IMG/VR virus record: IMGVR_UViG_3300023184_009677
Location: 1,752 to 65,751 of that record
DNA: 64,000 nt
Source: a virus
Lineage: Duplodnaviria; Caudoviricetes
Reading direction: 5' to 3' (one strand)
Positions 9,229-48,379 of this stretch are shown here, in pieces (the stretch's first letter is position 1; the number at the start of each line of letters is the position of its first letter). The translations under genes and the position numbers were made by a program. The notes under the pieces are model-generated. The model did not search any database, was not told the origin of the DNA, and saw nothing but the letters and a program-made list of their open reading frames with translations.

Positions 9229-9305
9229 GCGCTTGTAGCTTAATTGGATTAAGCATTTGCCTTCTAAGCAAAGGATTGTGGGTTCAAATCCCGCCAAGCG
9301 CACCA
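9229..9305 (+). tRNA. tRNA-Arg(UCU)
   Basis: Cloverleaf, anticodon arm tttgc-cttctaa-gcaaa, GGTTCAAATCC, encoded CCA. Confidence 0.92.
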
Positions 9306-10132: not shown

Positions 10133-10474
10133 ATGAAACTTTATTGGTCGCTGCATCGCAAATACAACTCAATACTAGACTGGTTTGCTTTTAAATTTCA
10201 AAATCCTTATCAAATAAAAGTAGGGGGAAATTGCCCAGTTGAAGCCGAAGGCTATCTTCCAACAGGAGAATTCTATTATTTTCGAGCTAGGGGTTCTCAT
10301 TGGCGTTTGGAAATTTCTAAAAACGAACAAGAATGGGCTAAAAATAAAATTATATTTTATTATGGCGAAAAATACTGCTATGACCAATTTGGTGCTGGCT
10401 GGATGACTTGCAGAGAAGCAATTAAATTTACAAATATGGCAATCAAATTTTATTACCAAAAGAGGGAACTATGA
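10133..10474 (+). CDS. hypothetical protein
   Basis: CPVEAEG..YYFRARG..W; promoter upstream. Confidence 0.6.
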   Translation: MKLYWSLHRKYNSILDWFAFKFQNPYQIKVGGNCPVEAEGYLPTGEFYYFRARGSHWRLEISKNEQEWAKNKIIFYYGEKYCYDQFGAGWMTCREAIKFTNMAIKFYYQKREL

Positions 10475-10830
10475 ATAGAGAAATTAAATTTAGAGTTTGG
10501 GACATATTTCAGAAAAAGTTTTTGGTTTATCCTTGCTATTTTAATAACAAAGATTTTAATGAATTTACTGCCTTTGATAGATATTTCAAATGTGATGAGG
10601 ATGAATGTATTGTTCAGCAATATACAGGAATCAAAGATAAAAATGGTAAAGAGATATATGAAGGTGATATAATTAAAACACCATTATCTCACATGTTTCG
10701 TAGTAATATATATGAAGTAAAATACCACCAAAATAGATTTACCCCTGATGATATTTGTGATGGTGATGTTGAAATCATTGGTAATATATTTGAAACTTCA
10801 AATCTTCTTGACAATACCAGCAAAATATAA
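10471..10830 (+). CDS. YopX-family protein (copy 1)
   Basis: REIKFRVWD...QYTGIKDKNGKEIYEGDI...IIGNIFE. Confidence 0.9.
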   Translation: MNREIKFRVWDIFQKKFLVYPCYFNNKDFNEFTAFDRYFKCDEDECIVQQYTGIKDKNGKEIYEGDIIKTPLSHMFRSNIYEVKYHQNRFTPDDICDGDVEIIGNIFETSNLLDNTSKI

Positions 10831-10842
10831 TATACTCTTTAT

Positions 10843-11250
10843 ATGAATAGAGAAATTAAATTTAGAGTTTGGGACAAACTTCCTAAAAAGTTTTTGGATT
10901 ATCCGTGTTATTTTAATCACAAAGATTTTAATGAATTTACCGCTTTCGATAGATATTTCAAATGTGATGAAGACGATTGTATTGTTCAACAATATATTGG
11001 ACTTAAAGATAAGAATGGTAAAGAGATTTACGAAGGTGATATTGTAAATTTCACTAAACGTGGAATGAATCATGGGCCTGAAGTGGAAAATATAAAAAAT
11101 GCCGAGGTATGGTATTCATCCGAGGATTGTGCATTTGTTTTTGGAAAATACAAATCTGCAGATTATACATGGTGGTATTCAATGGTGGATGTTTTGTACG
11201 ATTTCGAGGTGGTTGGCAACATATTTGAAAACCCTGAATTGTTAAAATAA
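10843..11250 (+). CDS. YopX-family protein (copy 2)
   Basis: Same YopX motifs. Confidence 0.9.
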   Translation: MNREIKFRVWDKLPKKFLDYPCYFNHKDFNEFTAFDRYFKCDEDDCIVQQYIGLKDKNGKEIYEGDIVNFTKRGMNHGPEVENIKNAEVWYSSEDCAFVFGKYKSADYTWWYSMVDVLYDFEVVGNIFENPELLK

Positions 11251-11251
11251 T

Positions 11252-11626
11252 ATGAATAGAGAAATTAAATTTAGAGCTTGGGATGAGAAATATAATTGCT
11301 GGGACAAAGGAGGCTTTTATTTCTACGTTAATGACCCATTCCAAAAGCAAGGATTCGTTATTCAACAATATACAGGACTCAAAGATAAAAATGGTAAAGA
11401 AATTTATGAGGGTGATATAATTAAGCATATAACAACAAGTGATGAAGGCATCTTTTCTGAAACTGTCGGAGGACTTGTAATATTTGAATCTGGTAGTTTT
11501 ATGTGCTATTTTAAAGAGGCTAAAATTAAAGTAAAATTAGAGGCGTGGCTATTAGAAACAACTATGACTATGGTTGGTAATATGTTTGAGAACCCTAATC
11601 TTCTTGACAATACTACCAAAATATAA
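11252..11626 (+). CDS. YopX-family protein (copy 3)
   Basis: Same YopX motifs. Confidence 0.9.
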   Translation: MNREIKFRAWDEKYNCWDKGGFYFYVNDPFQKQGFVIQQYTGLKDKNGKEIYEGDIIKHITTSDEGIFSETVGGLVIFESGSFMCYFKEAKIKVKLEAWLLETTMTMVGNMFENPNLLDNTTKI

Positions 11627-32938: not shown

Positions 32939-33223
32939 GTTTTTCAAATATTAGAAAATCTAATTTAAATAATAAGCTATGCAAATATAAGAAGGGATAA
33001 AGAAGAAGATTGGGATAAATAATATATTAAAAAGGGGGGTAGGGGGGTAGGGATTTTTGGGGGTAGGGGGCCCCCTACCCCCGCAGAGTGTGCGAGGAGG
33101 CTTGTCAAGCTTTTTCTGCAATAATCTTTTTAAAAAAACTATCAAAAAAAGGTTGCGCGGGAATGAATAGTCTGATAATCTTTGTCCGTTAGTTAAACAA
33201 ACAACAAACAAAAAGATAAAATT

Positions 33224-34102
33224 ATGGCTCAACTCGCAAAACAATCCTCCTCGTTCAATTACTCTGTGGAAGCTGCTCCCTCATTCATGCAGCTCACTGA
33301 CGGCTCATTCGTCAAGGATGGGTTCACTGTTAACCGCCGCACTGACACTCTTGAAGTGTTGGGCAAGGTGACTGACCGCTACGGTATCGTGCAGAACGCT
33401 GACCTGATTCAGGTTGCGGAAGATGCGTTTGCTGCAAAGAAAATGACTGACTACACTCGCAAGGTTGTGGTGACTGGTGCTGGTGAAAAGGTTTACGCGG
33501 TTTATGATTTCAAGAATCATACCAAAAAGCTCAAGGTTGGCGACGAAGTTGGCTTGCGTCTCACCTTGCAGAATTCGTTTGACGGCTCCCTCCGCGCTTC
33601 ATTTGGTTTGGGGATGTTGCGTCTGCTCTGCTTGAATGGCATGACCACCATGGAACGCGAAGTGGGCATGACCAAAAAGCATTCGTCTGGTATCAGCGTG
33701 CAGTTTGTTTCTGATGCGCTTGAAAAGGCGATTGTGTCTTGGAACAGTGCCACTGCTGTTTTTGACCGCCTGTCTGATATTAAGGTGACTCAAATTCAGG
33801 GCGCGAACATCCTTGCCAATCTGGAAAAGCAGTCTGTCATCTCTGGCAAGTTGCGCGAAGGCATCGGCGGCATCTGGGCAAGCCCCACGCATCGTGAGGA
33901 TGCTGGTCGCAACCTGTTTAACCTCTACAATGCCGTGACTCAACATCTCACCCACGATGTTGCTGGTGACCGCTTTGAATTGGCAAACCGCGTCTCCTCT
34001 AATGTCCTTGCGGCATTTGACCGCGCCTCGCAAAAGTCTGACCGCTTTGCGCGATTGGTGACCCCTGTCAAGGATGAACTGGCAGCAGTTAGCTTAAACT
34101 AA
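33224..34102 (+). CDS. DUF932-family protein
   Basis: LGKVTDRYGIVQN, NSFDGS, RLLCLNGM, KH, NLYNAVT. Confidence 0.85.
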   Translation: MAQLAKQSSSFNYSVEAAPSFMQLTDGSFVKDGFTVNRRTDTLEVLGKVTDRYGIVQNADLIQVAEDAFAAKKMTDYTRKVVVTGAGEKVYAVYDFKNHTKKLKVGDEVGLRLTLQNSFDGSLRASFGLGMLRLLCLNGMTTMEREVGMTKKHSSGISVQFVSDALEKAIVSWNSATAVFDRLSDIKVTQIQGANILANLEKQSVISGKLREGIGGIWASPTHREDAGRNLFNLYNAVTQHLTHDVAGDRFELANRVSSNVLAAFDRASQKSDRFARLVTPVKDELAAVSLN

Positions 34103-34122
34103 AAGTCAAGCAAATAAATCAC

Positions 34123-34151
34123 AGCCCGCTTCGAAAGAGGCGGGCTTTTTT
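34123..34151 (+). terminator. Rho-independent terminator
   Basis: agcccgctt-cgaaag-aggcgggct followed by a T-run. Confidence 0.8.
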
Positions 34152-34284
34152 GTTTTTTGTCAAATAAGCAAATAAGGGGGTAGGGGGTAGGTTCTGGGGT
34201 AGGGCATACCCCTACCCCTAAATTATATAAAAAAATAATTAAAAAAACCCTTGACCTTTTTACCAGACCTGATATCTTCTTTGT

Positions 34285-34767
34285 ATGGTTAATAACAAAT
34301 CGCACTTAACAGCAATCAAACGCAACAAACTATCTGCTCCTGCCACTTGGCTCTTGACCAATGGCTTTTTCAAGGATGCAAAACAAATCCTTGACTATGG
34401 GTGTGGGCGCGGTGAGGATACAAAGTTTTTAACTCATGTAGGATACCTGTGCTATCCTTATGACCCGCACTACCAGCCTCTCCCTGCCCCGCCAAATTTC
34501 TTTGACAAAGCAATGTGCAACTTTGTTTTGAATGTGGTGAATGAGACTGTGGCAGATGTTATCATCAAAAAAATCCAAGCACACTTGACCCCAACTGGCG
34601 TGGCTTACCTTACTGTTCGCCGCGATGTCAAGAAAAATGGTTTTACCAGCAAAGGAACTTTTCAGCGCAATGTGGCGTTGAGCCTGCCAGTCCTGCGCGA
34701 AACAAACGGATTTTGCATTTACAAACTTGACAAATATTCTGCCGTAGTCCAAACTCATTGTGTATGA
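34285..34767 (+). CDS. class I SAM-dependent methyltransferase
   Basis: TAIKR..LSAP, LDYGCGRGED, YDP, FVLNVV. Confidence 0.8.
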   Translation: MVNNKSHLTAIKRNKLSAPATWLLTNGFFKDAKQILDYGCGRGEDTKFLTHVGYLCYPYDPHYQPLPAPPNFFDKAMCNFVLNVVNETVADVIIKKIQAHLTPTGVAYLTVRRDVKKNGFTSKGTFQRNVALSLPVLRETNGFCIYKLDKYSAVVQTHCV

Positions 34768-35114
34768 AATATAACGTGTTCGTTAATTACCTCGGTGATG
34801 GTGGTTGCTCCTTCCATTACGAATCTGATAGCCCTGTTGAACGGGTGCTGGAAGATGTGTTTGCAATGTTCAACTATGGCAGCGGCAAAGAAAGCCCCCT
34901 GTTCCTAGCTCGCAGGTTGCGCTCACTTTCAGTCCATGATTGTGTTCGCGTTGGTGAAGAATGGTATCAATGTGCTTCTGTTGGTTGGCAAAAGGTCACA
35001 GCAGAGTATGTTGATGAGTTGGAAAAGAAAGTGGTGATGCACCCCTTGTTTAAATTGCATGGTAGCTGGTTCGCCCTAAATGATGTAATGTGGACAGAAT
35101 ACAAAAAAATATGA
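34764..35114 (+). CDS. hypothetical protein
   Basis: RSLSVHD.V.V...WY.C..VGW. Confidence 0.6.
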   Translation: MKYNVFVNYLGDGGCSFHYESDSPVERVLEDVFAMFNYGSGKESPLFLARRLRSLSVHDCVRVGEEWYQCASVGWQKVTAEYVDELEKKVVMHPLFKLHGSWFALNDVMWTEYKKI

Positions 35115-35398
35115 AAACCTTATCCTTCGACTTCCGTTCTGGTGCAGACATGGCAAATTTTGTTGACCTGATACTTGCCCTTCAATCCAAAGGGGTTGAA
35201 TACGAACTGACCCAAGACAATAAATGGGTCATGGTTAATTTCAAATAAAATAACAAACTCCTCAAATAGAGGAGTCCTTGGGGGGGTAGGGGGCTACCCC
35301 CTACCCCTATAAAAAATAGCGCGCCACCAGTTGAATCTTATCAGAATTTACGCTGAAAAGATTACGGGGCATGGAGCCCCTTAAAGGTGGCCGCCAAA

Positions 35399-35782
35399 TT
35401 ATTTTAAGAACTTATGGATGTTGGTTTTCCAATTTTTGTTTCCAACAGGGTCGGCGGATTTTGGACAATAGACATCCGCGAGAAAATTAAGATAATCTCC
35501 TTTGCTCCCTGCATCTTTCCAGCGCACTTCGTTGTGGTAGATTGTCACAAGGCAAACTTTGCGCGGGTTGCTAGTCTTGACACTCAAGATTCCGTAAGGG
35601 TGTTTTGTTTTCGCGCCGCCTTCAACTTTGTAAATGGCATCGGCAATCTTGCCATACTTGGCTTCTAGTTGTGCCTCGGTTAGCGGGGCAAAGCGACTTT
35701 TCTTTGTTGGTTCAGCGTGAGAAGATTTCACGATGACAAGGATTGCAACGAACACGCACAGGGCAGTAGTTAAGTTTTTCAT
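35399..35782 (-). CDS. secreted lysozyme/glucosaminidase-like protein
   Basis: Signal peptide; ADAIYKVEGG..YGI...YCP.SADPVGNKNW. Confidence 0.55.
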   Translation of the reverse strand: MKNLTTALCVFVAILVIVKSSHAEPTKKSRFAPLTEAQLEAKYGKIADAIYKVEGGAKTKHPYGILSVKTSNPRKVCLVTIYHNEVRWKDAGSKGDYLNFLADVYCPKSADPVGNKNWKTNIHKFLK

Positions 35783-36015
35783 AGTGGTGATAGATTATTA
35801 TATTTTGGTGGAGTTGTCAAGAAAAATTAATTAACATAGTCTTTATATTCAGTCTCTCCCTCAAACGGCTCTGCCCAGATAAGGTCAAAAGCATCATCAG
35901 CTGATATTTCTCTATACCAAGTTTTACTGAGAATATCTTGCAGTTCTTCTTTGGTCATTGGTTTTTTCATAGTGGTGATATATTATTATATTTTGGTGGA
36001 GTTGTCAAATGTATT

Positions 36016-37238
36016 TTACACCAAAGCGCAAGTAGTTTCCTGAATGTTCATTGTGCAATGGTAACAGTCTAAAACTTCGCCATCGCAACTAACAGAAGCA
36101 TGAAAGCCGTGGGAAATTAAGTATTCAACATATTCCAATGCCGCAATTAAACTTGCTGATGCTTTGGGATAAGAAAAGCTGCTGACGGCAACAGTCTCTA
36201 ATGTTTCGGTGCTAACTGCATTCACAGAGTATGTTTTATTCATGGGTAAAGTTTAGCTGATTATCAAAAAAACGCAAGGGAATTTTAGAAAATTTTTTAA
36301 ATATATTTTACGATTTTTCTTGACAAAATACAAAATTTCCCTGAAATACTAAAATATCCAAAATAGTCTAAATAGACTAAATAGCCTAAATAGGGGTTTT
36401 TGGGGTTATTTTTCCCAAAAAAAGCAACTTGCGTAAGTCGTTGATACTCAAGGGCTTTTGGGGCCCCCCGCGTAAGTCGTTGAATTTCAACCACTTATGC
36501 AGGTCTTTGTTAGCAAGCCCCGTGCCAACTAGTCCACCACCTCCACAAAAAAAGTTTGTTTTTTATCGTGACAATCGTAACCCGTAACATTGAATCTTTT
36601 GCCGCTCCCGTCTTCCCGTTCAACGGAGAGGATGTTATGCAAAAAATCATTGCCAATCCGATACCATTGGTCGCGGTCAAAAGTAAAAAGAGCGTCAACA
36701 AGGTTTTGGCGTGTGGTGATTGAGTAAAGGTTTTTATTCATGTAAAGAGTATAGGTTGAAAGTGTGAGATTGTCAACATTTATTTTAGTGTTTCCAATTC
36801 TTTTAAGAGTTTGGCAAGTTCTGCCCCTGCCTTGCCACTCTCTACTTCTTTAATCTTGTTCTTGTAGTAGGCAATGTTTTTGCGGAGAACTCGGCGTTTA
36901 TCATTCAGCTCTTCATTCTTTGCATCTGCGTCACATTCAGCCCACCACTTAAGAATTTTTTGTGTCTCGTCAACATTTTTGTGGGCAGTCTTGACAACCT
37001 TTGCACCATTCTCAACAGTTGTCTCAACTTCGTCCCAAGTGTGTTTGAATTTAGTAAAGAGTTGGCGCGGGATAACATGACCAGTCCCATGACCTTCTAA
37101 AATGTATTCACCGCCAGATTCAAGCAACCCATGAGTGTTTGCCCTGTGACCTTTTTTGTAGGTCTTTGGTCCGCACATTGTCTCAACAGTAAAGTCGGCT
37201 CCCAGAATTGCGTAGTGTTTCTCGTTTTTAATTTTCAT
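36016..37238 (-). CDS. three hypothetical proteins (36016-36243, 36529-36741, 36780-37238)
   Basis: - strand ORFs with own promoters or coupled to the upstream gene. Confidence 0.6.
36434..36527 (-). promoter_or_regulatory. sigma54-like -24/-12 box plus IHF-like sites
   Basis: - strand TGGCACG-GGGC-TTGCT (36512-36527) and TATCAA-CGAC-TTA (36434-36446). Confidence 0.55.
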
Positions 37239-37259
37239 AAAGTTATTTTGGGCTAAAAG

Positions 37260-37448
37260 TTAGCTCATGTCAACAGTAAATTTATAATTACATTCTTTGC
37301 AACATTCCGTTTGAGTATTGCCCGAAGGGGAAACCCACAAGCGGGTGATTTTATGTTTCATCGCCAAACACTTTTTAAAAGTTGCGTCGAATTCAGGATT
37401 ATATCCGTTTGCCCATCCGTAATCTGTCATTTCGTTCTCAATCTTCAT
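37260..37448 (-). CDS. small Cys/His protein, paralog A
   Basis: Near-identical to 37688..37876. Confidence 0.75.
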   Translation of the reverse strand: MKIENEMTDYGWANGYNPEFDATFKKCLAMKHKITRLWVSPSGNTQTECCKECNYKFTVDMS

Positions 37449-37565
37449 GACTAAAGATTACCTGATTTTTTAAAAATGGCAAGGGATTTTTAGTAAATTT
37501 ATTTTTCTTTTTTTTGCAATTCCACTTGACAAGTTTTAGCGTTTGTGGTAGTAGGGCAACTTTTG

Positions 37566-37685
37566 TAAGTCGTTGATATTGAAGGGGTTAGGCGGGGGGC
37601 CCCATAGACCGTTGATATTCAAGGGTTTACGCATTTTGCATCTAGCAAGTCCCATGCCAACCTGCCCCTAGCAAGTGGCGTGCCA
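37566..37685 (-). promoter_or_regulatory. two tandem sigma54-like boxes plus IHF-like site
   Basis: - strand TGGCACG-CCAC-TTGCT (37670-37685), TGGCATG-GGAC-TTGCT (37644-37659), TATCAACGACTTA (37566-37578). Confidence 0.55.
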
Positions 37686-37687
37686 AC

Positions 37688-37876
37688 CTAGCTCATGTCG
37701 GTGGAAAATTTATAATTACATTGCTTGCAACATTCCGTTTCCCGATTGCCTGACGGCGAAACCCACAAGCGGGTCAGCTTGTGTCCCATCTCTAAACACT
37801 TTTTAAAAGCTGCGTCGAATTCGGGATTGTATCCGTTTGCCCACCCGTAGTCCGTCATTTCGTTCTCAATTTTCAT
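37688..37876 (-). CDS. small Cys/His protein, paralog B
   Basis: MKIENEMTDYGWANGYNPEFDA shared with paralog A. Confidence 0.75.
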   Translation of the reverse strand: MKIENEMTDYGWANGYNPEFDAAFKKCLEMGHKLTRLWVSPSGNRETECCKQCNYKFSTDMS

Positions 37877-37885
37877 AAATTTATT

Positions 37886-38252
37886 TTACGCTTCAAACCC
37901 ATCTTTGTCAAGGACAATTTCAATGTCTCCACCCTCTTGGTCTATTGCAAAAGCGATGTTGCCCACGATTGCATCTACAATGCACCATCTTCCGTTTACA
38001 TTTAGTTCAGTTCCAATTTCAATTTTCATAAAGTTAATTTATTAAATTTACACTATTTTGTCAAGGGGCAATTACTTGTTCAAAGGAAACTATTCCTGCC
38101 GTCAGGTCACGCAACAGTTCCCTAGTTTTGCTGTCAATGGTTTTTTTGCCAGTTAATTGCTGAATGATTGCGGCATCACCCTTGTTAACGATGTAGGACA
38201 ATTTGTTGCCGTAAACTTCGCGGGTGTAGTATTGGATCGTTTTCTTATTCAT
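37886..38252 (-). CDS. two hypothetical proteins (37886-38029, 38061-38252)
   Basis: - strand ORFs. Confidence 0.55.
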
Positions 38253-38272
38253 TTATATAGTTTGTTAAATTT

Positions 38273-38476
38273 TCAGAGAGATGTCAAATCTAAATTCCAA
38301 TTATTTTTTGCAAATCTTTTGAGGGGATGCAATCCCTTTTCCCCATTATGAAAAGAATAAAATGGCTTACTTGAATCAGGAGGGAAAATTTTGATTGTGC
38401 TGTTTCCAGACTTGGAATAGCTCAACCGGAACCCCAAGGCTTTTAACGCTGACAATATTTGATTAACATTTTTCAT
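38273..38476 (-). CDS. HicA-like small protein
   Basis: QILSALKALGFR.....GN..KIFPP....H pattern. Confidence 0.45.
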   Translation of the reverse strand: MKNVNQILSALKALGFRLSYSKSGNSTIKIFPPDSSKPFYSFHNGEKGLHPLKRFAKNNWNLDLTSL

Positions 38477-38684
38477 TGGCTTTAATATATATTATTTCAA
38501 AATCAATAGCAAATAAAATAAATATGTTCTTTTAGGGGTAGGGCCCCCTACCCCCATTTGATAGGAAAAATGATTGGGCGCGTTTAGCTCTCCCCCTCGC
38601 TGCTGGTTTAACTTTATCGGAGACCTTTGCCGAACTCCGCTTTTGTAAGATGTGGCAGTTTTGAGGGTCTGCCAACCTTGTTAG

Positions 38685-39044
38685 TTATGCCGCCAGAAAA
38701 AACGCATTAGGCTTGCGACCACGCGAGACAATCTTTGACTTGCTGCGTGCGCTCAACGCTTTGCAATCCACGATTCCAATAGCCTTGAGTTTATAAACAA
38801 TGTCCTTGACATATTTACTGTTGGTGATGAAACCCTTTTTGTTCAACTCCTCAATGAGTGCAGAGATGGTCAGGGTGCTGGTGGTGCGGGATGCCAAAGT
38901 TTCCACAACTAACTGGTGCATGGGGAACGGATTGCGAACATTTTGCGTCCAGTTGCTGTTCAGGATGTTATAGCTGCGTTGCAGACCCTTGGCAAAGGGC
39001 ATAACGGACTTGACTTGCTTGCGAACGATTTGTTTCTGGTTCAT
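38685..39044 (-). CDS. putative winged-helix DNA-binding protein
   Basis: LTISALIEEL...YVKDIVYKLKAIGIV...GRKPNAF. Confidence 0.55.
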   Translation of the reverse strand: MNQKQIVRKQVKSVMPFAKGLQRSYNILNSNWTQNVRNPFPMHQLVVETLASRTTSTLTISALIEELNKKGFITNSKYVKDIVYKLKAIGIVDCKALSARSKSKIVSRGRKPNAFFLAA

Positions 39045-39291
39045 AACTAACTAACTTTTTTCTAGGTTTATTGTGAAAGACTTTGTGTCCTTCATCTGCA
39101 AAGAGAATATCAGACCTGCTAAAGAGTGCAATCTTTTTTTAATAAATTTTTAGAGTATATTTTAATAAATATCAAATATTAACTTGACAACTGTAAATAG
39201 ACTTAGTAAAGGGGTAGGGGTACGCCCCTACCCCACCAAGACCCATTGAGGGTTGTGTGATACAATTATATTTTAGTGGGGATGCCAAGGA

Positions 39292-39459
39292 CTATTCCCC
39301 GCTATTTTTAATGGCGCGTTTTGCTGCCGACAAAGGTTTAACTCCATCTGTATACCATTGCATATAGCAACAGTCCTCTAAGTCGTCGCTAGTCAAGCCG
39401 CAAAATGCAGAGATGTTCTTATCAACTTGCTTCTTCCATTGTTCGAATGTTGTTTTCAT
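39292..39459 (-). CDS. small acidic hypothetical protein
   Basis: TFEQWKKQVD..CGLTSDDLED..WY.DG; own promoter; not in track. Confidence 0.55.
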   Translation of the reverse strand: MKTTFEQWKKQVDKNISAFCGLTSDDLEDCCYMQWYTDGVKPLSAAKRAIKNSGE

Positions 39460-39490
39460 ACAGATAAGTTATTATATTTTAGTGGCGGTG

Positions 39491-39982
39491 TCAAGAGTTA
39501 ACAGAGGAAAGATATACTAAATATTTTTTGCATTTTGGGCAAAAGCGTCGTTGACCATTTTGAATCTTGCGGTGAATCAAATTTGATACATGGAACTTTT
39601 GGCAACTACAGACATAAGTGTGCGGTTGTTTTGACGGCAGGTGCATAGAGTGGCAGCGAGTTGGCTCTGTGCCCAATTTCACAGCAACAGATTTCCATTC
39701 TGGTCCATGATGCTGCTTGGCATAGGGATAAACCTTGTAAGCGACCAAGTGTGCAACTTCATGAGGAACTGTGCGAGAAATTATCTTGTCAGGATATTGT
39801 TCAAGAAATTCAGGATTGATTTTGATTTTCCAGTCATGCAAATGAGCCTGACCAGCAACACGAGATGAGTTGAGTTCAAAAGATAATTTGGGCAGTTCAA
39901 AAACTTTGCCAAACTGTTTTTGTGCCAACAGGAATGTTTCCAAGATTTTATCTTCAACCCGATTAATGAGTTCGTTATTCAT
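39491..39982 (-). CDS. SprT-like zinc metalloprotease
   Basis: AGQA, PHEVAH, HGPEWK, Y.CSC, CPKC. Confidence 0.88.
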   Translation of the reverse strand: MNNELINRVEDKILETFLLAQKQFGKVFELPKLSFELNSSRVAGQAHLHDWKIKINPEFLEQYPDKIISRTVPHEVAHLVAYKVYPYAKQHHGPEWKSVAVKLGTEPTRCHSMHLPSKQPHTYVCSCQKFHVSNLIHRKIQNGQRRFCPKCKKYLVYLSSVNS

Positions 39983-40157
39983 TTGCCTAAAATTTATCAG
40001 TTCCAAAAAAAATAGCAACATAAATAAATAACAATCTTTAGGGGTAGGGCCCTACCCCTTTTGGCAAAAGGTAGGCCACCCAGTTAGGGTGACCCATTGG
40101 ATTAGGCTTTCTTATAGATTGCCAACAATATTATCATTAGTAATGCAAAGAATATCA

Positions 40158-40784
40158 TTAGTGTTGTTTATAGTTGATGTTCGCGTTTTCTTTAAGCCAG
40201 CAGGCGCGGCAATCGCGGCACTCATTGTTTTGCTTTGATGCTGGACAAGTGAATCCCTCTTTTGAAACGCCGCTGGTAGTTAAGCCAAGACGATTGGCAA
40301 TCGCAACAGGCGGTTGCCCCTCTAACATAAGGGCAGACAAGCGCACAGTCAAGTTTTCAGGGAAAGAATTTTTCGCTAAGTATTCGGAAACGAAAGAATA
40401 TTCGCGGGTGGGCAACCAATGTTTAACGGTGGGAGTGAGTTTGCAAACTTCCACAATCTTGGCAAGGTGGGCAACAGATTGAATGTCCCCAGAATCATGC
40501 CAGCGAAAGAAACCAGATTTTTCTTTCTTATTAATCAGGAAAGCCATTGCAGAAACCCATTCAGCGTGGGTTAATTTTTCCCAGCGACGCATCAGGGCAT
40601 TTTTGACAACAGGAAAGCCATACATCCCCTTCATCGCATAACACTTTGAACAGATAGAGTCTACAACTTTCCGCAACTTCATGCCCGTGATACATTTGAT
40701 TGCAGGGATGGAAAAGCCATAGCAGGGCATTTTGCTAGGGTTACTCAATCCGCCGGTGATTTCAACAGCCAGTGATATATTCAT
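40158..40784 (-). CDS. GP88-like (radical-SAM-related) protein
   Basis: SKMP, C...C..CYAMKG, FRWHDSGD, WLPTRE, CPA...C.DCRACW. Confidence 0.8.
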   Translation of the reverse strand: MNISLAVEITGGLSNPSKMPCYGFSIPAIKCITGMKLRKVVDSICSKCYAMKGMYGFPVVKNALMRRWEKLTHAEWVSAMAFLINKKEKSGFFRWHDSGDIQSVAHLAKIVEVCKLTPTVKHWLPTREYSFVSEYLAKNSFPENLTVRLSALMLEGQPPVAIANRLGLTTSGVSKEGFTCPASKQNNECRDCRACWLKENANINYKQH

Positions 40785-40917
40785 AGGCAAACATTCTACC
40801 AGAAGACAAAAAAGATGCAACAATTAATTTTTATAAAAAATATTTAAATAATAATTGACAAATATCAAATAGTGTTTACGGGGGGTAGGGGGGTACGCCC
40901 CTACCCCACAAGGGGAG

Positions 40918-42152
40918 TTACCACTCCTTGTGTTTTTGTTTGCGGGTGTATTTCTTTTTATCCTTGACAACTCGTGTCACAGGATTCAATTCACCCCAAG
41001 TTTTCCGCACAGATTTAATGATTTCAAGTTGGCGTTTCATAAACAATTACCTTCCCATACTAGTTCATTTTCGCAAGAAATGCGAACAGTTTTTCCGCGT
41101 TTCACAAACCTCTCTGCCATTTTCATTGCAGAGTCTAGTGTGGCGCGAACATCCCTGCCCACAAAGTTCATTGTGAAGGTGGCTTCATTATCTTTGATTG
41201 TTTCCAGAGTGTATGTTTTTTGCATATAAGAAAAGGTATCAGATTTACAAAATTTGTCAAATATTTTTTAATAAATAATAAATAAGAGCTTTAGGGGGTA
41301 GGGGTACGCCCCTACCCCTTTTGGGAAAAGAAAACCGCCCTGCTCTGAACAGGGCGGCGTGGGTTAAAATGCGGAGTTGCGTGCATCAGCTTGTTGGTCC
41401 GCCCAGACATTTACAATATCTTCAAAAGCAGACAGAGCTTTTTCTTTGGTGGTCACATTACATAGTGCAAGGTGCTTTTCAATATCCTTGTCGCTCCAAC
41501 ATTCAACCAAGACATCCCAGCCTCCGTCATCGTAATGTTCAAGTGCGTATTGTTTAATGTATTCAACTAATTGTTTCATACTAGTATTCCTTTATTGGTT
41601 AACATTGCACAGAATTCAGCATAGACCTTTTGCTTGTTGCCTGTCAAATTAAATTCCTGCTTAACGATAGAAAACGCAGACTTGCCGCCGCGTTTCATTC
41701 CCAATGTTTCCAGCTTGAGCATAGACTTTAATGCCAAGAGCCGGAATGCGTTAATCTGTTCTGGTTTGTCCAACACCAATGTTTCATTCATAGGAGATAA
41801 AAATACCAAACTTGATAAAATAGTCAAATTTAATTTAATAAATATTAAATAAGATTCTGTGGGGGTAGGGGTACGCCCCTACCCCGCAGGGCATAAAAAA
41901 CGCCAGCCCTGCTCCGACAAGGCTGGCGAGTTTTCAGTAGCGGCGCAAAATCTTTTCGTCAATTTGATCGTTGATTTTGGCGCAGGCAGAAATTTGTTCG
42001 TCAATTTCGCTGTGAATTTCACTGAGCAAATTCCACAGCCTGGAACTGTCAAAGATTGGCACTTCGAATTCGGGCGTGATGGTTTCCTCGACGCTAATGT
42101 GCGCGAGCCGGCTTTCAATTTGTTCGTTGTTCAATTGTGAATAGTCATTCAT
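40918..42152 (-). CDS. five small hypothetical proteins (40918-41040, 41037-41225, 41364-41579, 41576-41791, 41934-42152)
   Basis: ORFs filling palindrome-delimited units, behind TTGACA/TTGACT promoters. Confidence 0.6.
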
Positions 42153-42198
42153 AACGTTTAGAGTATCGTCTATTTTAGTTTCGCAGTCAACAAATTTT

Positions 42199-42448
42199 TG
42201 AGAATAAGATTTGCCCCGACCGATCGTGCTTGCGTCCAAGACGACACTTTTTATTTGTTAGCATCTTTGACGATGCAACAGGATCTTATTCTCAGGGTCG
42301 CCCTTGCGCTACGCACTCAGGTTAGACCAAAATTAAATGTTGGTCGGGTTTGTCGTTTTGTGACGCTGCGATTTTCACGCAATCTCGCTGAATAAACAGA
42401 CGGCTCTAAATTGAGCTAACGGCACTTGATTCAGACTCCCGACCAACA
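42199..42448 (-). ncRNA. candidate tandem structured ncRNAs
   Basis: Promoter TTGACT-16-TATCTT (42481-42454) starts at a perfect 11-bp closing stem (42338-42348/42438-42448); second perfect 12-bp stem 42199-42210/42283-42294; no start codon at the predicted +1. Confidence 0.6.
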
Positions 42449-42643
42449 AAGAAAAGATACCAGAGCCCTAAAAATAGTCAAATATATTTCAAACTATTTT
42501 AAATAACAATCCAAGGGGGTAGGGGGTACGCCCCCCCTACCCCCCATGGGCATTGCGCCAGCGAGCCCCCGAAACTCGCCAGCGCAAAATTTATTTTGTT
42601 TTAAAAATTGAGACAAAAACCATAAAAACAAGTAAGAAAAAAA

Positions 42644-43372
42644 TCATGCTGCCACCTCACTTTTCGCTTGCTTTTTAATTGCTTTTAAGGCTTCCGCCGC
42701 TGCCGTTCCTTTGGGTTGCGTGCCGTGCAAAAGTAGAGCAAAAGATTTTTTGCCGATTGCGGCGTGGCTGTCGTCGTGGTCAATTTCCAAACCTTTTTGC
42801 GCGGCTTCGGCTTCGCTGAAAACTACTTCCGAACATTTCAGCCCGTGCTGGTTTATCATTTCGTCATATCTTCCGCCCCGTGAAGCTGTCAAAACAAAGT
42901 TTTCAGGGATTTCATTTTTACGAGAGAGCCAAAAGGGAAGGCTCTTGGTATAGGCATAAAAAGTTTTAGAAGGATTTTTCTTTGAGACTTCAATCCATGC
43001 GTCAAAGTAGGCTTGGCTAAAAAAGTCGCCGCCGATATGAATGCGGCAGATATTAAAGTATAGGGGAAGGCTTTTGCAAATTTCGTCCGCGATTTTTTGG
43101 TAGTCGTTCCCATGCTGGCGGATAGTTTCAAAGTTATTCCAAACCATTTTACGGAGGGAAGGATAAAGAGCTTCCGCGCTGGCTTGAAAGCAACGGAACT
43201 TTGTTTGCAAGCCGTCGGAGATTTTTCCCGTTTCCCTATCGGCACGGCTCAAACATTCCAAAGCACCCGAGCAAGTAAAGCCCGAGGGAAGGGAAAAGGT
43301 TATCACTTTAGCTTGCAAGGCGATTTCCAATTTTTTGAGTTTTGCGTTTGCGTCACCGAATGTTAATTTCAT
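42644..43372 (-). CDS. second GP88-like protein
   Basis: NAKL, FSLPSGFTC.GA..C, RIHIGGDFFS, YAYTKS, HDDSH. Confidence 0.75.
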   Translation of the reverse strand: MKLTFGDANAKLKKLEIALQAKVITFSLPSGFTCSGALECLSRADRETGKISDGLQTKFRCFQASAEALYPSLRKMVWNNFETIRQHGNDYQKIADEICKSLPLYFNICRIHIGGDFFSQAYFDAWIEVSKKNPSKTFYAYTKSLPFWLSRKNEIPENFVLTASRGGRYDEMINQHGLKCSEVVFSEAEAAQKGLEIDHDDSHAAIGKKSFALLLHGTQPKGTAAAEALKAIKKQAKSEVAA

Positions 43373-43594
43373 GCCCAAAGATTAACACAAAACAAAAAGA
43401 GAGCAAGAGATTTTTCAGAAATTTTTTTGATAAAAAAAACTAATTTTATCCTTGACATGAACAAATAACGCCAGTGGGGGGTAGGGGGGGTTGGCCCCCT
43501 ACCCCCAAAGAAGCCTACCCCCTACCCCCACAGGGGGGGAAAAGCAGAAAGCGTGCCAACCTTGCTCCGAACAAGGCTGGCACATTGGTTTGGG

Positions 43595-46490
43595 TTAAAT
43601 GATTTCTAGGTTTGCCGCTTTGACAGTCATGCAACCTTCCGCATTTTCGCGCGCCTTTGCTTTGCTGCCGCAAATTTCTTCCGCTTGTGCGCGGGAGATT
43701 TCTGCGCCGTCAAGATAAAACTTCACGCTGGGCTTGCGGCAAAAGCCAGAGTCTTGCTGGGCTTGGCTGGGCAGATACAAGCGGATATATTCTGCGCCTT
43801 TGTGGGAGATGACAAAGGGAAATTGTTTCCATTCGCCCCATTTGAGGGAGCCAACTTCGCTGCGTTCGCCAGCTTCAATGGCTTCGCGCACGTCCTTGCG
43901 ATTTTCAAAAGACACGCCAGAGATGACAGTCATTTCTGTAATCTTTTGAACAAGTTTTCCAGCGTGGGATTTGAGAGCTTCAATCTCGGACACAAGGCGC
44001 ACATTCAGGGACGCGCCCCGCTTGTCTTGAATTTTTTCTACGATTTGTTCTGCGTTCATTTTTTACCTTTGGTTTATTGGTTTAACTAACAAGGACACTA
44101 TCGCAAAGATTTTGTTTCGAGTCAACATTTTTTTATAAATTATTTTCTAAAATTAGCTTGACATTTGCAAATATCTCTATGGGGGGGGTAGGGGGGGTTG
44201 GCCTTGTAAACCAAAACAGACCAAATAATCTTTGGGAGGGGGTAGGGGGTGGGCCCCTACCCCTTTAGGCACAAAAAAGCCGCCCACTTGGGCGGCGTGA
44301 TTTTAAATGTCGTGGTGGTTTCCAAGCCAGCCATGATACCTGAAACATATCCCGTGAGGAGCGTCAATTTCTTTGCCAAACTTACGGGCAATGTGTTCAG
44401 AATTCCAGTCTGTCAATAAACCTCCGCGCCAGTAGATGATAGTTTCCGCGCCTGACCAGCGTAAAGTCAAGATAACTTTGGCAGTCTTAAACTTGGACTT
44501 GCGAAAGTTGGTGTTGACGCAAATGGCAGGGGAAAAGCAATTGCCCCAAACATTAAAACCAAAGTAGAGACCGCACACGCGCACAAGAGTGCCCAGATTT
44601 TTAGAAGATTTATAACTGAATAATTTATTCATACAAAAACAATATCAAATTCTAGAAATTGGTCAACAACTATTAAATAATATTTTTAAGGGGGTAGGGG
44701 GTACGGCCCCTACCCCAAAAACAAAAAAAGAGGCGAGCCACTTGGCTCGCCCTTGTTTACTCGCCCATGTCACCGAGGTCAGTTTGGGCTTCCCAATAGG
44801 AATCCAAACCAGCATCCTCCGCGCCCTCATCGCGGTAGCTGTCTGCCTCGTTGGCATTGTAGTCCGCGAGGTCGTCAGTCCCGCTGCCATCACCAGCCCA
44901 GCCGCCGCCATCATAGGCGGTCTCTAGGGGTTCCACTTGTGCCAGCCGCGCCTCGCGCGACTCCGAAGGTAACTGAATGAATTGATTCATACAAAAAAGA
45001 TAATACAAAATTTAAAAACCTAGTCAACAAAAATTCAAAATTATTTTAAAACATTTTAAATAATCTCTGTGGGGGGTAGGGGGGTACGCCCCTACCCCAA
45101 AAAGGCAACAAAAAACCACCCTGCTCCGAACAGGGTGGCTTGTGAGAGATTTATGACCAAGAGTGATTTTTGTCCAAGGCAAGTTGAATGGTCACTTCCA
45201 TTTCAGCCAGCCTCTTGTTTACGGATTCAGGAATTTTGTGGGCAGTATCTTTGTAAGCCCAAGCCATGGCTTGCGCTTCAATCAAAGTGTCGCGCAGGTT
45301 TTGAATCTTCGTCCGCAGTTCATCCATCTGTATTTCAGTTATTGTTGTCATATTTTTTTAATGGTTAAAACTAACAAAGACAAAATACCAAATTTCTAAA
45401 AGGTGTCAAATATTTTTTTAATTATTTTAAATAAGCCCACAAGGGGGTAGGGGGTAGGCGGTGGGGTAGGCCCCCTACCCCCACAGAAAATTTGGGCACA
45501 AAAAAGCCGCCCTTTCGGGCGGCGTGGTTTAGTCCATGTCTGCCTCGTATTCTTCAAAGGCAATTTCGATTACTCTCTCGCACTCGCTTTCCGTGAGTTC
45601 GATTTCCTTTCCGTCTTCACCCTTTGCGGAAAGAATTTCAAACTCGGCGGGTTCGGGCGGAGTCTCGCGGTCTCCGCTAAATGCCTTGTGATATTTCAAG
45701 ACAACATCCACTTCCTGTTCGGTGTCGTTCCGTTCAATTACGAATGATGTATAATGTTTCATACAAGAGAAGATTCTCACAGTTTTGATTTTTTGTCAAA
45801 TATTTTTTTGAATATTTTTTTAGCAAGGGCAAATAAGCCTGGAAGGGGGGTAGGGGGGTTGGCCCCTACCCCAAAAGATAAAAAAAGGGCGAGCCTCTCG
45901 GCCCGCCTTGTTTTAGCCTTGGTTATCAGGCAAGTGATTTAATGATGGTGGGTGAAAGGTGCTGCCGCAAAGCACCTTGGCGTCAGGATAAGCAGCCTGC
46001 GCCTCCTCTAGGGTGTCAAAATCGTCAAGCCACAAGCGGCGGCGTTGACCCGATAAAACACTGCCCCGCGAATAGCGTGAGTGTTCGTAAACAGTGTAGC
46101 GGTCATTGGCGTAGGTTTCCCCGCGCCCCATTTCGATGGTCTGATTAGGTTTAACCATAACAAGGAACAGTATCAGCCAATTTAAAAAAATGTCAAATAT
46201 TTTTTAATATATTTTAAATAAGGGTTTAAGGGGGTAGGGGGTTAGGCCCCTACCCCTTTTGGGCAAAAAAAGAGCGACCCTTTTGGGTCGCCTTGATTTT
46301 ACCAGCCTCGCGTATTTTCGCGGATGTTGTAACCGCGCAAGGCGGTCTTTCTGCTGAGGTGCCCACAGTCGCACTCGTACCACTCGTACCCACCCTGCAC
46401 CGCCGCACCCGCGTACTCCTGATAAGGCCGCTCATACTCAACAGTCACAACCGCGCCGCACTGGGAACACTTGCAATTTTTATTTTCCAT
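43595..46490 (-). CDS. seven single-gene cassettes, hypothetical proteins (43595-44059, 44303-44632, 44757-44990, 45151-45351, 45529-45762, 45913-46158, 46299-46490)
   Basis: Each ORF has a TTGAC(A/T/C) promoter upstream and a hairpin terminator then a GTAG palindrome downstream. Confidence 0.7.
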
Positions 46491-46674
46491 AGGCATTAAG
46501 ATTAATAGGTTTAGCAAAAAGGTCAACAACATTTTCAAAATTATTTTCAAGTAAACTAAATAAGGATCCAAGGGGGTAGGGGGTTAGGCCCCCCTACCCC
46601 CCCTTGGGGGGTAGGCGTTAACGTTAACGTAGAAAGGCAAAAAAGGGCGACCTTTGCAGGTCGCTTGGCACAGT

Positions 46675-46887
46675 TTAAGCTACCACACTGTAGCTCACTA
46701 TCCTGTCACTGCGCAGCATCCGTGGCGCAGCCCGTTCTATGCACCATCCCTTGTAATAGGTGATGCCATCCTTGTCCCATGTGGTGAGCCTATCCGTGAG
46801 CGTATAGGTCGCGGATGTTTCGGCATCTTCCTTAAGGTAACGGAATGCCACTGTCTTAACTTCACTGATGTTTAATGGTTTAATCAT
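46675..46887 (-). CDS. mini WYL-like protein, paralog A
   Basis: FRY...YYKGWCIERAAPRMLRSDRI. Confidence 0.55.
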   Translation of the reverse strand: MIKPLNISEVKTVAFRYLKEDAETSATYTLTDRLTTWDKDGITYYKGWCIERAAPRMLRSDRIVSYSVVA

Positions 46888-47029
46888 AACAAAAACATAT
46901 TAGTCCATTTCCAAAAATTGGCAAGAGAAAAAGATAAAATCTTTGAATAAAAAGTTATTCACAATTTGAGGTGTTGGCATGGAGATTGCTAACTAGCAAA
47001 TGCCAAACTTTAACGTTAAAGCCCAAATA

Positions 47030-47345
47030 AAGATAAGGGGGGGTAGGGGGGGTTACCCCCAACCCCCACAGCGTTAACGTTAAAATTAACGCTAAAACTC
47101 CAAATAAACCCCAAGGGGGGTAGGGGGGGTTGGCGTATGCCAAACTTTAACGATAAAGGGCAAATAAGACCTGTGGGGGTAGGGGGCAGGGGGGTAGGGT
47201 AGGGTAGGGGGTAGGCGTTAACGATAAAGCTGGGGTAGGGGTAGGGTAGGGGTAGGCGTTAACGATAAAGCTGGGGTAGGGGTAGGCGGGGGTAGGGGTA
47301 GGGTGGGGGTAGGGGGTAGGGTAGGGGGGGCCTTTCGGCCCCTCC
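47030..47345 (+). repeat. G-rich (GGG+TA)n tract with CGTTAACG(ATAAAG) spacers
   Basis: Dense runs of 3-7 G separated by TA; two copies of ggcgttaacgataaagctggggtagggg. Confidence 0.9.
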
Positions 47346-47352
47346 CGTTTTG

Positions 47353-47541
47353 TTAGTATTGCACTACAATTTCGTCCAGTATTTTCCGCGCATCTTCTAA
47401 CTCTTTTAGTCTTTCTACTTGCCAATCGCTAGGGATTTTTCCCTGTTCTTTGATTTCCTGCATTTCAACCTCTAGGCTTACAGTGCCCGTGCAAACGGCG
47501 CGCGATAATGTTTGCCAGTTTTTCCAAGTCATTTTCATCAT
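47353..47541 (-). CDS. hypothetical protein
   Basis: ORF between two G-rich hairpins; no clear promoter. Confidence 0.4.
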   Translation of the reverse strand: MMKMTWKNWQTLSRAVCTGTVSLEVEMQEIKEQGKIPSDWQVERLKELEDARKILDEIVVQY

Positions 47542-47589
47542 AATTTTTGGGGGTAGGGGTAGGGGCCTTTCGGCCCCACCCCGTTTGGT

Positions 47590-47838
47590 TTACTTACTGG
47601 TCACCTCGTAGGAGATAACACGGTCTGAACGAAGGACACGCGGCGCTTGGCGTTCAATGCACCACCCTTTAAAGTAGGTGATTTCCACACCTTCGACCTC
47701 TTTTGTCCAAGATAAAAGCGGGGCAGGTTGCGCGCCCCCGTTGCTGGTCAGGGTATAAGTGCGAGGCTTTTCAGCGTCCGGCTTCAAGTATTTGAACTTA
47801 ATCCGGCTTGCCGTTTCAATGTTAATTGCTTTTTTCAT
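47590..47838 (-). CDS. mini WYL-like protein, paralog B
   Basis: FKY...YFKGWCIERQAPRVLRSDRV; start moved to ATG 47838. Confidence 0.55.
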   Translation of the reverse strand: MKKAINIETASRIKFKYLKPDAEKPRTYTLTSNGGAQPAPLLSWTKEVEGVEITYFKGWCIERQAPRVLRSDRVISYEVTSK

Positions 47839-48379
47839 TTTCTGTTTTTTTGTTTTTTTGTGGCGCGCGTCGTGCGCTCCATCTGGGAACATATTAAACG
47901 AAAACAAATTTTGCACAAGTTTTTTTTGAATTATTTTTGCAAGTTTTTTTTTGGAATTTAGTTGACAAGAGACCCCTAATTTATGAAAAAATTTTTGGAT
48001 TGGAGACCAGCGGCACGGCGCGGGGGGTCTTTTATAGATCTCCCCTTGAGTTTGGGTCAAATCTAATTATATTAAATTATAATTATAATTACATTACAAT
48101 CTTAAAATCTCCTATTGTTTCTCATATCACTTAAAATCATCTGGGAGAAAAAATCGGAAGGGGTCCATATTTCCAAAGTAAATTCTAATTATATTAAAAT
48201 ATATTAAAATATATTAAAAGATATTAACATATCTAGTATATATGGGTGGGCTGGACCCCCCATTTTAAAAAAATAAAAACAAAATCAAAAAAAAATCAAA
48301 ATCATTTGGGAGAAAAATCCACGGGGGCTTTTATTTTCTAAAGTATTTTCCCTGGTGTAATATAAGATAAGATAAAATT

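Follow-up and report, generated by a model that had tools for sequence, protein, structure and literature searches.

Promoter-early stem-loop cassettes (PeSLs) were reportedly proposed in 2010 as a means by which T4-type phages shuffle their accessory genes. The published accounts describe PeSLs from the T4-type phages RB49/phi1, PST/T4 and nt-1/KVP40 as composites of an AT-rich tract, a near-consensus sigma70 promoter and a polyG...polyC stem-loop (PMC2839356, PMC4122927). According to the same accounts, PeSLs crowd the hyperplastic regions of these phages and flank indels between close relatives, their recombination yields mini-circles, a crossover in RB49 was mapped to the stem-loop's loop, and the authors speculated that GGGG...CCCC may be a protein target (PMC2839356, PMC4122927); the stem-loop is read there as a terminator or attenuator (PMC2839356). 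Here, we describe a related arrangement in a 64,000-nucleotide stretch (the window, numbered from its first letter) of the virus record IMGVR_UViG_3300023184_009677 (positions 1,752 to 65,751), where a short palindrome composed of GGGGTAGGGG and CCCCTACCCC arms recurs between small genes. The region from 33.0 to ~47.97 kb is most likely a hyperplastic accessory-gene region of ~20 small genes built from PeSL-type autonomous cassettes.

The array resembles PeSLs in its dense intergenic composite repeats within a hyperplastic region of small ORFans, in its combination of a near-consensus sigma70 promoter, an upstream AT tract and a polyG...polyC stem-loop, and, for some of the junctions compared between close relatives, in replacements at the repeats. 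The differences concern the hairpin. In RB49, which we checked directly, the GGGG...CCCC hairpin lies between the -35 and -10 elements and GGGTAGGG has 0 copies in 49 kb, whereas here the hairpin is separate, 22-45 nt upstream of the -35 element and ~15 nt downstream of a canonical terminator, and lacks a T run. The RB49 hairpin is taken as a terminator, whereas the terminators of the upstream units are separate hairpins here. In addition, the TA-centred word and the TATTT box are both fixed in the present array, and its palindrome is common to unrelated phages. The array belongs to the PeSL type, but its hairpin stands free as a boundary element and keeps a fixed word, which makes it a variant of the described PeSL cassettes. 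Searching the literature for the motif strings returned no phage paper among the matches listed.

Two other systems offer parallels. The modular theory (Susskind and Botstein; lambdoid boundary sequences) is said to hold that short conserved sequences between modules guide exchange between phages; in contrast to such linkers, the linker here is a hairpin-forming palindrome present in ~20 copies in one region. Integron cassettes are promoterless and are read from one common promoter. As in integrons, small accessory genes form an array in which a hairpin-forming site bounds each unit, units may be exchanged at that site and structure is kept over loop sequence. Unlike in integrons, a promoter and a terminator belong to every unit, the palindromes that serve as sites are short and perfect (attC sites being imperfect hairpins), and no IntI was found with PF00589 in any of the five records profile-searched, which are the window record (65.7 kb, 43% complete), its 98% relative and three palindrome-bearing phages. 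An earlier note on this DNA, made from its letters without database searches, had suggested a logic like that of integrons with different sites: this is in effect the published PeSL idea, while the integron features themselves fail here (no IntI in the five records, and units that have promoters of their own).

The palindrome and the units between its copies

With at most one mismatch, GGGGTAGGGG occurs 67 times in the window, compared with 1.43 expected and a maximum of 7 in 100 shuffles, and 64 of the 67 matches fall within 33,036-47,565. A regular expression together with reading by eye gave 19 inverted-repeat copies between 33,059 and 47,068, of the form G3-7 TA G3-7, a centre of 0-5 nt (16 nt in one copy) and C3-7 TA C4-7. 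The strict pattern GGGGTAGGGG-N0-8-CCCCTACCCC matches 14 of the 19, and the backwards control 0. None of the 19 overlaps any of the 34 gene calls, in a region whose intergenic fraction is 0.33 (P ~6e-10), which bears out the earlier description of about 20 intergenic palindromes over some 14.5 kb.

Across the copies the stem is kept while the loop letters differ. The loop reads CATA at 34196-34218, TACG at 39211-39234, 40880-40907, 41294-41318, 41861-41885 and 42515-42545, TTGG at 43476-43506 and 45845-45872, TGGG at 44238-44263 and TTAGG at 46230-46256 and 46572-46603; the copy at 40041-40058 has no loop, and the one at 45443-45482 has an extra internal half-site in its 16-nt centre. The remaining copies lie at 33059-33082 (GGGGGTAGGGGG/CCCCCTACCCCC), 35280-35307, 38535-38555, 44690-44716, 45071-45098 and 47038-47068, the last being degenerate, with TA in one arm and AA in the other. 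Folded as single-stranded DNA, the hairpins range from -5.3 to -15.3 kcal/mol (mean -11.6), and folded as RNA they average -22 kcal/mol. The distance between the GTA and TAC cores ranges from 6 to 16 nt, G-run lengths vary too, and the GTAG of each arm sits within the perfect stem rather than at the foot of an imperfect hairpin.

Half of a palindrome can also stand alone. Solitary half-sites are strand-biased 26:4; examples are two G-arms beside the first palindrome (33036-33053, plus), one at 34177-34191 (plus) and one at 43519-43528 (minus). Two truncated palindromes on the plus strand both end in the loop, one comprising the left arm and TTGGC (44185-44205), the other at 47117-47137. At 47,176-47,327 (plus) there is a one-stranded G-arm array, with a 41-nt unit repeated 2.3 times and GGGGTA repeated 16.7 times, which is not made up of palindromes. 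The array as first delimited thus stands as regards its 19 copies, but it includes this one-stranded (GGGGTA)n stretch and a small-gene block at 35.3-38.5 kb that has no palindrome.

Between 38,535 and 47,038 the palindromes follow each other at 342-961 bp, and each unit carries one or two small genes. The minus strand carries the genes between 35.4 and ~47.9 kb, and on it a unit reads gene stop, GC hairpin with T run, palindrome, TATTT(A/G), A/T spacer, promoter and ATG. The regular unit proposed earlier is confirmed in its parts; its order needs correction, since with minus-strand genes terminator, palindrome and promoter are read from right to left. TATTT(A/G) stands 8-11 nt after the palindrome in 17 of the 19 copies, and the absolute polarity from palindrome to TATTT, stated for all 19 copies, is constant whatever the gene direction. 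The palindromes at 33,059 and 34,196 serve plus-strand genes, and the one at 35,280 sits where the ends of two genes converge and has no adjoining promoter.

Downstream of most palindromes lies a promoter with TTGAC(A), 16-17 nt and a TGn-extended -10 element (TTGACA/TGnTAyyTT), preceded by an AT-rich tract that the unit alignment resolves into TATTTA and an A/T spacer of ~18 nt. A sigma70 consensus scan found 43 sites in the region, compared with 25.4 in shuffles. Individual promoters are TTGACC-16-TATCTT with TG at 34251-34278 (plus, for the methyltransferase gene) and, on the minus strand, TTGACT-16-TATTTT with TG at 41800-41827, TTGACC-16-TATTGT with TG at 44639-44666, TTGACA-16-TATTTT with TG at 45382-45409, TTGACA-16-GATACT at 46169-46196 and TTGCCA-16-TAATAT at 46897-46924. 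Aligning 12 units shows no variation in GGGGTAGGG, CCCTACCCC, TATTT or a single T within the -35 hexamer, and almost none in the next T, G and A of that hexamer. The offsets from palindrome to -35 element are 22, 22, 23, 33 (five times), 43, 45, 45, 58, ~109 (a weak call) and 112-113 nt; a 12-nt AT-rich tandem unit in one spacer fits their steps of ~11 nt.

The palindrome is not the terminator. Ten hairpin-plus-T-run terminators were called on the minus strand, and in seven of them the stem ends 14-16 nt before the palindrome. Intrinsic terminators on this strand lie at 41334-41358 (stem end 15 nt before the palindrome), 41901-41928, 43552-43584, 44279-44296, 44731-44752, 45113-45141, 45506-45523, 45888-45907, 46273-46292 and 46647-46664. 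On both strands the palindrome lacks a T run after it, so that it does not itself make a terminator, and 18 of the 19 copies were not called as one; the sole call lies inside the degenerate copy at 47038-47068 (stem 47060..47039) and has a weak tail. The copy at 33059 is far from any terminator. The earlier reading of the palindrome as separate from, and additional to, the terminator agrees with all of this.

Palindromes in other phages and at exchange junctions

The same palindrome occurs in other phage lineages. A metagenome scan for it returned at least 133 stretches, and among the matches listed, from which the lake contigs below are taken, several lake contigs carry arrays of it. In each of the other lake arrays examined, the palindrome has a T run ahead of it and an A run behind it, each at a distance of 3-9 nt, and a sigma70- or sigma54-like promoter follows. 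Other lake contigs have homologues of the SprT-like, 63-aa, GP88 and DUF932 genes next to the palindrome, ordered and oriented differently. One contig (L231) has palindrome copies in a divergent promoter region, and a compensated arm change separates L235 (TT/AA) from L214 (TA/AA). An unrelated group of ~72-kb phages (G006-G009), which encode ribonucleotide reductase, primase, DnaB and UvsX, carries GGGGGTAGGGGG[A/T]CCCCCTACCCCC upstream of TGGTATAAT promoters. Its palindrome-bearing member G008 is 94% complete and has a UvsX-like recombinase. A blastp comparison of the window with G008 at 1e-4 gave 0 protein pairs, and the array proteins of the window had 0 matches in the regions from G006-G009.

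The surroundings of the palindrome vary among these phages. In G006-G009 (L159-L162, L006-L024), TGTAAAG-N3-CTTTACA hairpins and direct repeats rich in CTCAT lie on its flanks, and the TGGTATAAT promoters lack a clear -35 element. In some lake contigs (L182/L183, L235) it is bordered by arrays of direct and inverted repeats that resemble CCTAGGGAATTCCCTAGG, and in several (L186, L217, L235) a sigma54-like motif follows it by 17-19 nt. Several contigs begin 22-26 nt before a palindrome; we considered physical DNA ends and rejected them, as assemblers produce such ends at repeats.

Ten kb of the array had no megablast match in 50,697 phage records, and the palindrome is absent from the DNA examined of 29 loci related by their terminase large subunit (TerL; 53-98% identity). 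Viral-contig searches with the 679-aa, 154-aa and 244-aa proteins returned nothing close. A 209-aa GP88 query matched 80 loci at 32-53% identity, and among the 60 with a length of 5 kb or more none has a perfect palindrome with an 8-bp stem repeated at least three times. The 98% relative (G001) and the contig L038, which were assembled independently, end within ~60 bp of the right border of the array (window 47940-47980; L163:1, L038:1), which gives a weak hint that the region is variable or repeated.

The clearest case of exchange comes from a 1,947-bp contig, L179, which is 95.6% identical to window 39,123-39,234 and 95.9% identical to 40,041-41,504. The stretch from the palindrome at 39,211 to that at 40,041 measures 806 bp in the window (DUF5419 and SprT-like genes), compared with 370 bp in L179. 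The L179 insert has its own terminator, a gene 51% identical to that at window 45,529-45,780 and its own TATTTGA-18 nt-TTGACT promoter. At both junctions homology stops inside the palindrome, where loop letters and arm lengths change. The alignment shows what appears to be one natural cassette replacement with both crossovers within palindromes. In a second comparison, L214 and L235 share a 99.6%-identical block whose start, its only junction, is the T run 16 nt ahead of a palindrome. For blocks at least 94% identical, three of four junctions are no more than 20 nt away from a palindrome (P = 0.002 when all positions are considered, 0.057 when only intergenic ones are). Between G007 and G008, which are 96% identical, three of six indel breakpoints fall at the edges of the composite repeat, with a palindrome 19-47 nt away. 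A further contig, L178, matches window 41,364-42,137 at 97.8%, with the palindrome at 41861-41885 conserved, and its identity to GP88 is 87%; a further three small genes separate its GP88 and SprT genes.

The likeliest reading, which we consider about an even call, is that the palindrome serves as a common linker where the general recombination of the phage exchanges self-expressing cassettes. Each cassette comprises a host-type sigma70 promoter with its AT-rich upstream tract, one or two small genes and its own intrinsic terminator, and the GGGGTAGGGG/CCCCTACCCC palindrome, just after each terminator and ahead of the next promoter, would be the boundary linker. Because the palindrome is the same at every boundary and can fold into a stable hairpin or cruciform, crossovers may favour it. 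The general recombination machinery would use the short shared arms to repair breaks or template switches that arise at the dyad centre, and whole units could thereby be deleted, inserted, replaced or flipped with their neighbours unharmed, no dedicated recombinase being needed. A second role, compatible with the first, is likely: as a GC-rich block just downstream of the terminator U tract, the palindrome would be a putative insulator.

Several observations weigh against exchange through a shared linker. The palindrome is missing altogether from the whole records (105 and 84.6 kb) of relatives with 72% TerL identity. Another TerL relative, L039, has a comparable small-gene region punctuated by 13 sigma54-like motifs (in its first 2.6 kb) and another repeat, so the palindrome is not required for such a region. 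L178 lacks 40,770-41,363, including two palindromes, and has another repeat family in their place; none of its three junctions is at a palindrome, all being at gene ends, 46-111 nt from the palindromes of the window. The other three G007/G008 breakpoints are unrelated to the palindrome. The L179 case is one short metagenome contig, and a double chimeric assembly at repeats could in principle have produced it. Arms of ten bases are short for homologous recombination. Simple homology leaves unexplained both the TA-centred G arm in phages that share no protein and the constant polarity from palindrome to TATTT with the 26:4 bias of half-sites. Finally, an 'early' timing of array expression would be read from promoter type only. 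The earlier proposal of cassette exchange at the palindromes, to be checked by breakpoints in relatives, hence finds agreement in L179 and in the L214/L235 junction and disagreement in L178 and half of the G007/G008 breakpoints.

Other explanations of the palindrome

The palindrome may instead be an operator or roadblock, at which a phage or host DNA-binding protein at every boundary insulates or co-regulates the units (all early promoters might, for instance, be silenced or stimulated jointly), with recombination as a by-product. We hold this possible, if rather improbable. The mycobacteriophages provide a precedent: L5 stoperators and the 17-bp palindromes near promoters in cluster O are operator-like sites of fixed length, and the L5 repressor is known. 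As there, tens of copies of one short intergenic site occur in one phage and are positioned relative to promoters; here, however, arm and loop lengths vary and no binder was identified. A binding protein would account for a TA-centred arm kept across lineages whose promoters differ (sigma70-type, sigma54-like or extended -10 only), for offsets to the -35 element that step by ~11 nt and for the symmetric layout between T run and A run in the other lake contigs, and the array itself encodes two stand-alone WYL proteins and a weak winged-helix candidate. On the other hand, a fixed dimer site would not tolerate a core distance of 6-16 nt and variable G runs, four of the offsets are as long as 58-113 nt, one copy lies promoterless between convergent gene ends, and the ~11-nt steps are explicable by the 12-nt tandem unit in the spacer. 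Furthermore, the window and G008 share no protein, and the candidate binders recur in none of the other palindrome arrays.

A role in transcription only, with the palindrome as a GC clamp or second hairpin 6-8 nt past the U tract that raises termination or stops read-through from both sides, we consider unlikely. Either an RNA hairpin or a DNA:RNA G-tract structure could be its form. The constant distance of 14-16 nt from the terminator stem in seven of ten units, the T run ahead of the palindrome in all other lake arrays examined, the stability of the RNA hairpin and the compensated arm change between L235 and L214 would all fit, and the PeSL account describes its stem-loop as a terminator or attenuator (PMC2839356). 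Against this role, the palindrome has no T run after it on either strand, a good terminator is already present, and copies occur in the divergent promoter region of L231 and, at 33059, remote from terminators. A generic clamp would not preserve the exact GGGGTAGGGG word in unrelated phages, and crossovers at the dyad centre would be left unexplained.

We also think it unlikely that the palindrome is a dedicated, structure-read recombination site, opened at the dyad centre and common to unrelated freshwater phages. Less probable again is its more specific form, in which the folded hairpin, similar to attC or to the ends of IS200 and REP elements, is read by a dedicated enzyme from the missing part of the genome or from the host. 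All four crossovers or scars at hand (the two L179 junctions and the two truncated copies) are at the dyad centre, the stem is conserved while the loop varies, phages without shared proteins have the site in common, and the record covers just 43% of the genome. Nevertheless, Y1 transposase (PF01797), tyrosine integrase (PF00589) and serine resolvase profiles matched 0 of the five records, including the 94%-complete G008, while the control genomes matched. Recombinase and transposase families were likewise matched by 0 of 91 ORFs of the window and 0 of 64 ORFs of other palindrome contigs. The earlier statement that no integrase or RAYT could be recognised thus extends to the whole 65.7-kb record, 43% of the genome, and the search for Y1, tyrosine or serine recombinases that the earlier note had advised came back empty for the five records. 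Some junctions also lie away from palindromes (L178, G007/G008). Finally, a strict pattern scan of one genome from each of 185,579 species returned 89 stretches; the 80 of these 89 that are listed sit on 80 different contigs, at most three per assembly, and include no multi-copy (REP-like) family, so that no host genome with a family of copies was found among them.

The same results refute, as far as the data reach, a REP-like element mobilised by a RAYT (Y1 HUH) transposase, the link drawn by the earlier note. A REP is an imperfect palindrome with GTAG 5' of its foot. The likeness consists of short GC-rich intergenic palindromes with the letters GTAG in each arm, but here GTAG lies within a perfect stem, no RAYT was found in the five records, and the listed matches show no chromosomal copy family, with no contig among the 80 of 89 carrying more than one stretch.

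Three further candidates were considered and dropped: an NtcA-type GTA-N8-TAC site (the spacing here is N6-N16), an N4-type hairpin promoter (the start region is not conserved and host-type promoters are present) and a bidirectional terminator (which would need its T run on the other side). A host Chi-like site, which would have to be judged against the host, was set aside as well.

Genes of the array and the meaning of a free-standing hairpin

At its left end, the array opens on the plus strand with the first palindrome upstream of a DUF932 gene of 292 aa (33224-34102; PF06067, E 8.6e-19), which ends in an intrinsic terminator (34123-34146). A methyltransferase-domain gene of 160 aa follows (34285-34767, plus).

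The palindrome-less block at 35399-38476 holds ~10 small genes on the minus strand. Its promoters are of sigma70 type, and it also has three sigma54-like motifs and intergenic repeats of a second family. This family consists of two direct copies of ~20 nt (…CCCTTGAATATCAACG…) around a GGGGCCCC core; it is found at 37560-37630 and 36440-36490 (minus) as well as in L178 and L039, and stands in for the palindrome in this block and in relatives. The sigma54-type motif TGGCAY-N5-TTGCW occurs four times in the window, compared with 0.34 expected, at 36512-36527, 37644-37659 and 37670-37685 (minus) and at 46975-46990 (plus); to our knowledge, sigma54-like promoters ahead of phage accessory genes would be unusual. 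Two 62-aa genes in the block with the same first residues are tandem paralogues (37260-37448 and 37688-37876), and successive genes have a near-identical promoter and leader (35790-35850 and 35975-36030); both pairs are local duplications.

The palindrome-bounded cassettes that follow are all on the minus strand. The first has a gene of 119 aa with a weak winged-helix hint (38685-39044; E 0.03). The next, replaced in L179 by crossovers at the palindromes to its left and right, spans 39292-40021 and pairs the SprT-like gene (ORF 39491-40021) with a DUF5419 gene (39292-39459). Beyond it, a GP88-family gene (40158-40823) is a paralogue of a second one of 244 aa (42644-43378). Between them lie a 62-aa gene that is missing from L178 (41037-41225), a two-gene cassette with ORFs of 71 and 83 aa (41364-41827), a 101-aa ORF whose start is likely further in (41934-42239) and an ORF-less stretch of 253 nt (42195-42447) behind its own promoter (42454-42481). 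This stretch folds at -84.5 kcal/mol (z = -4.9 vs shuffles) and is a candidate structured RNA cassette; Rfam over 32-49 kb gave four weak matches, all under the gathering score, and none for 42195-42447.

To the right, single-gene cassettes encode proteins of 154 aa (43595-44059, no family) and 109 aa (44303-44632), an 83-aa ORF with 56% GC (44757-45008), a protein of 66 aa (45151-45351), the 83-aa ORF with its homologue in the L179 insert (45529-45780), a protein of 81 aa (45913-46158) and a 90-aa ORF with a likely start further in (46299-46571). The head of the array comprises a stand-alone WYL-domain gene of 70 aa (46675-46887; E 2.8e-5), a 62-aa gene (47353-47541) and the first array gene, a 156-aa ORF with a WYL-like C-terminus and a likely ATG near 47838 (47590-48060). 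Here, a second small palindrome, TTAACGTTAA or TTAACGATAA, is interleaved with the G-arm repeats, at 46617-46634, 47010-47030, 47070-47097, 47140-47160 and 47215-47230, just downstream of two WYL-domain genes.

No PHROG family was matched by 15 of 21 array ORFs, while Pfam matches comprise the SprT-like, DUF5419, DUF932 and methyltransferase domains, GP88 twice and the two stand-alone WYL domains. The cargo is compositionally foreign: array genes average 44.9% GC (n=30), compared with 36.1% in backbone genes (n=43; P = 1.8e-9), so that the array looks acquired from a gene pool richer in GC. The flanks of the array carry rIIA, rIIB, PhoH and a T4-type TerL, whose top cultured-phage match is just 25% identical, making any kinship with T4 distant. 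Profile searches also identified ThyX, dUTPase, dCMP deaminase, an ATP-dependent ligase, a clamp-loader-like ATPase, a sigma70-region-2 protein and the T4-type N-terminal domain of the terminase in the window, which further has a sole tRNA, tRNA-Arg (TCT) at 9229-9305, and three consecutive YopX-domain genes (10471-11626). With rIIA/rIIB and a T4-type terminase, the source is a large uncultured freshwater phage, of which the 65.7-kb IMG/VR contig (43% by CheckV) is a genome fragment; among the metagenome runs listed, 20 from 12 studies, those labelled lake or freshwater contain from 20% to 98% of the sampled words of the record (word share).

The SprT-like, DUF932, GP88, WYL-only and methyltransferase cargo hints at the anti-defence or takeover functions that a system of this kind would spread. 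If the palindrome were a dedicated recombination site, a common pool of self-expressing cassettes would amount to a phage-borne counterpart of the integron without a classical recombinase, and the reader of the site would be an unfamiliar nuclease or DNA-binding protein, or a hairpin-processing nuclease of the gp46/47 type. The principle of PeSL-type cassettes is known; new here are the free-standing hairpin, its fixed word and its sharing across phages without a common protein. The work on PeSLs in 2010 left the nature of the G...C hairpin open: it could be no more than a terminator, offer a patch of homology or act as a specific target. In the array described here, the hairpin is physically apart from both terminator and promoter, has one exact word that is shared, and is the crossover point in what appears to be a natural variant, so that these three roles can be tested apart from one another.

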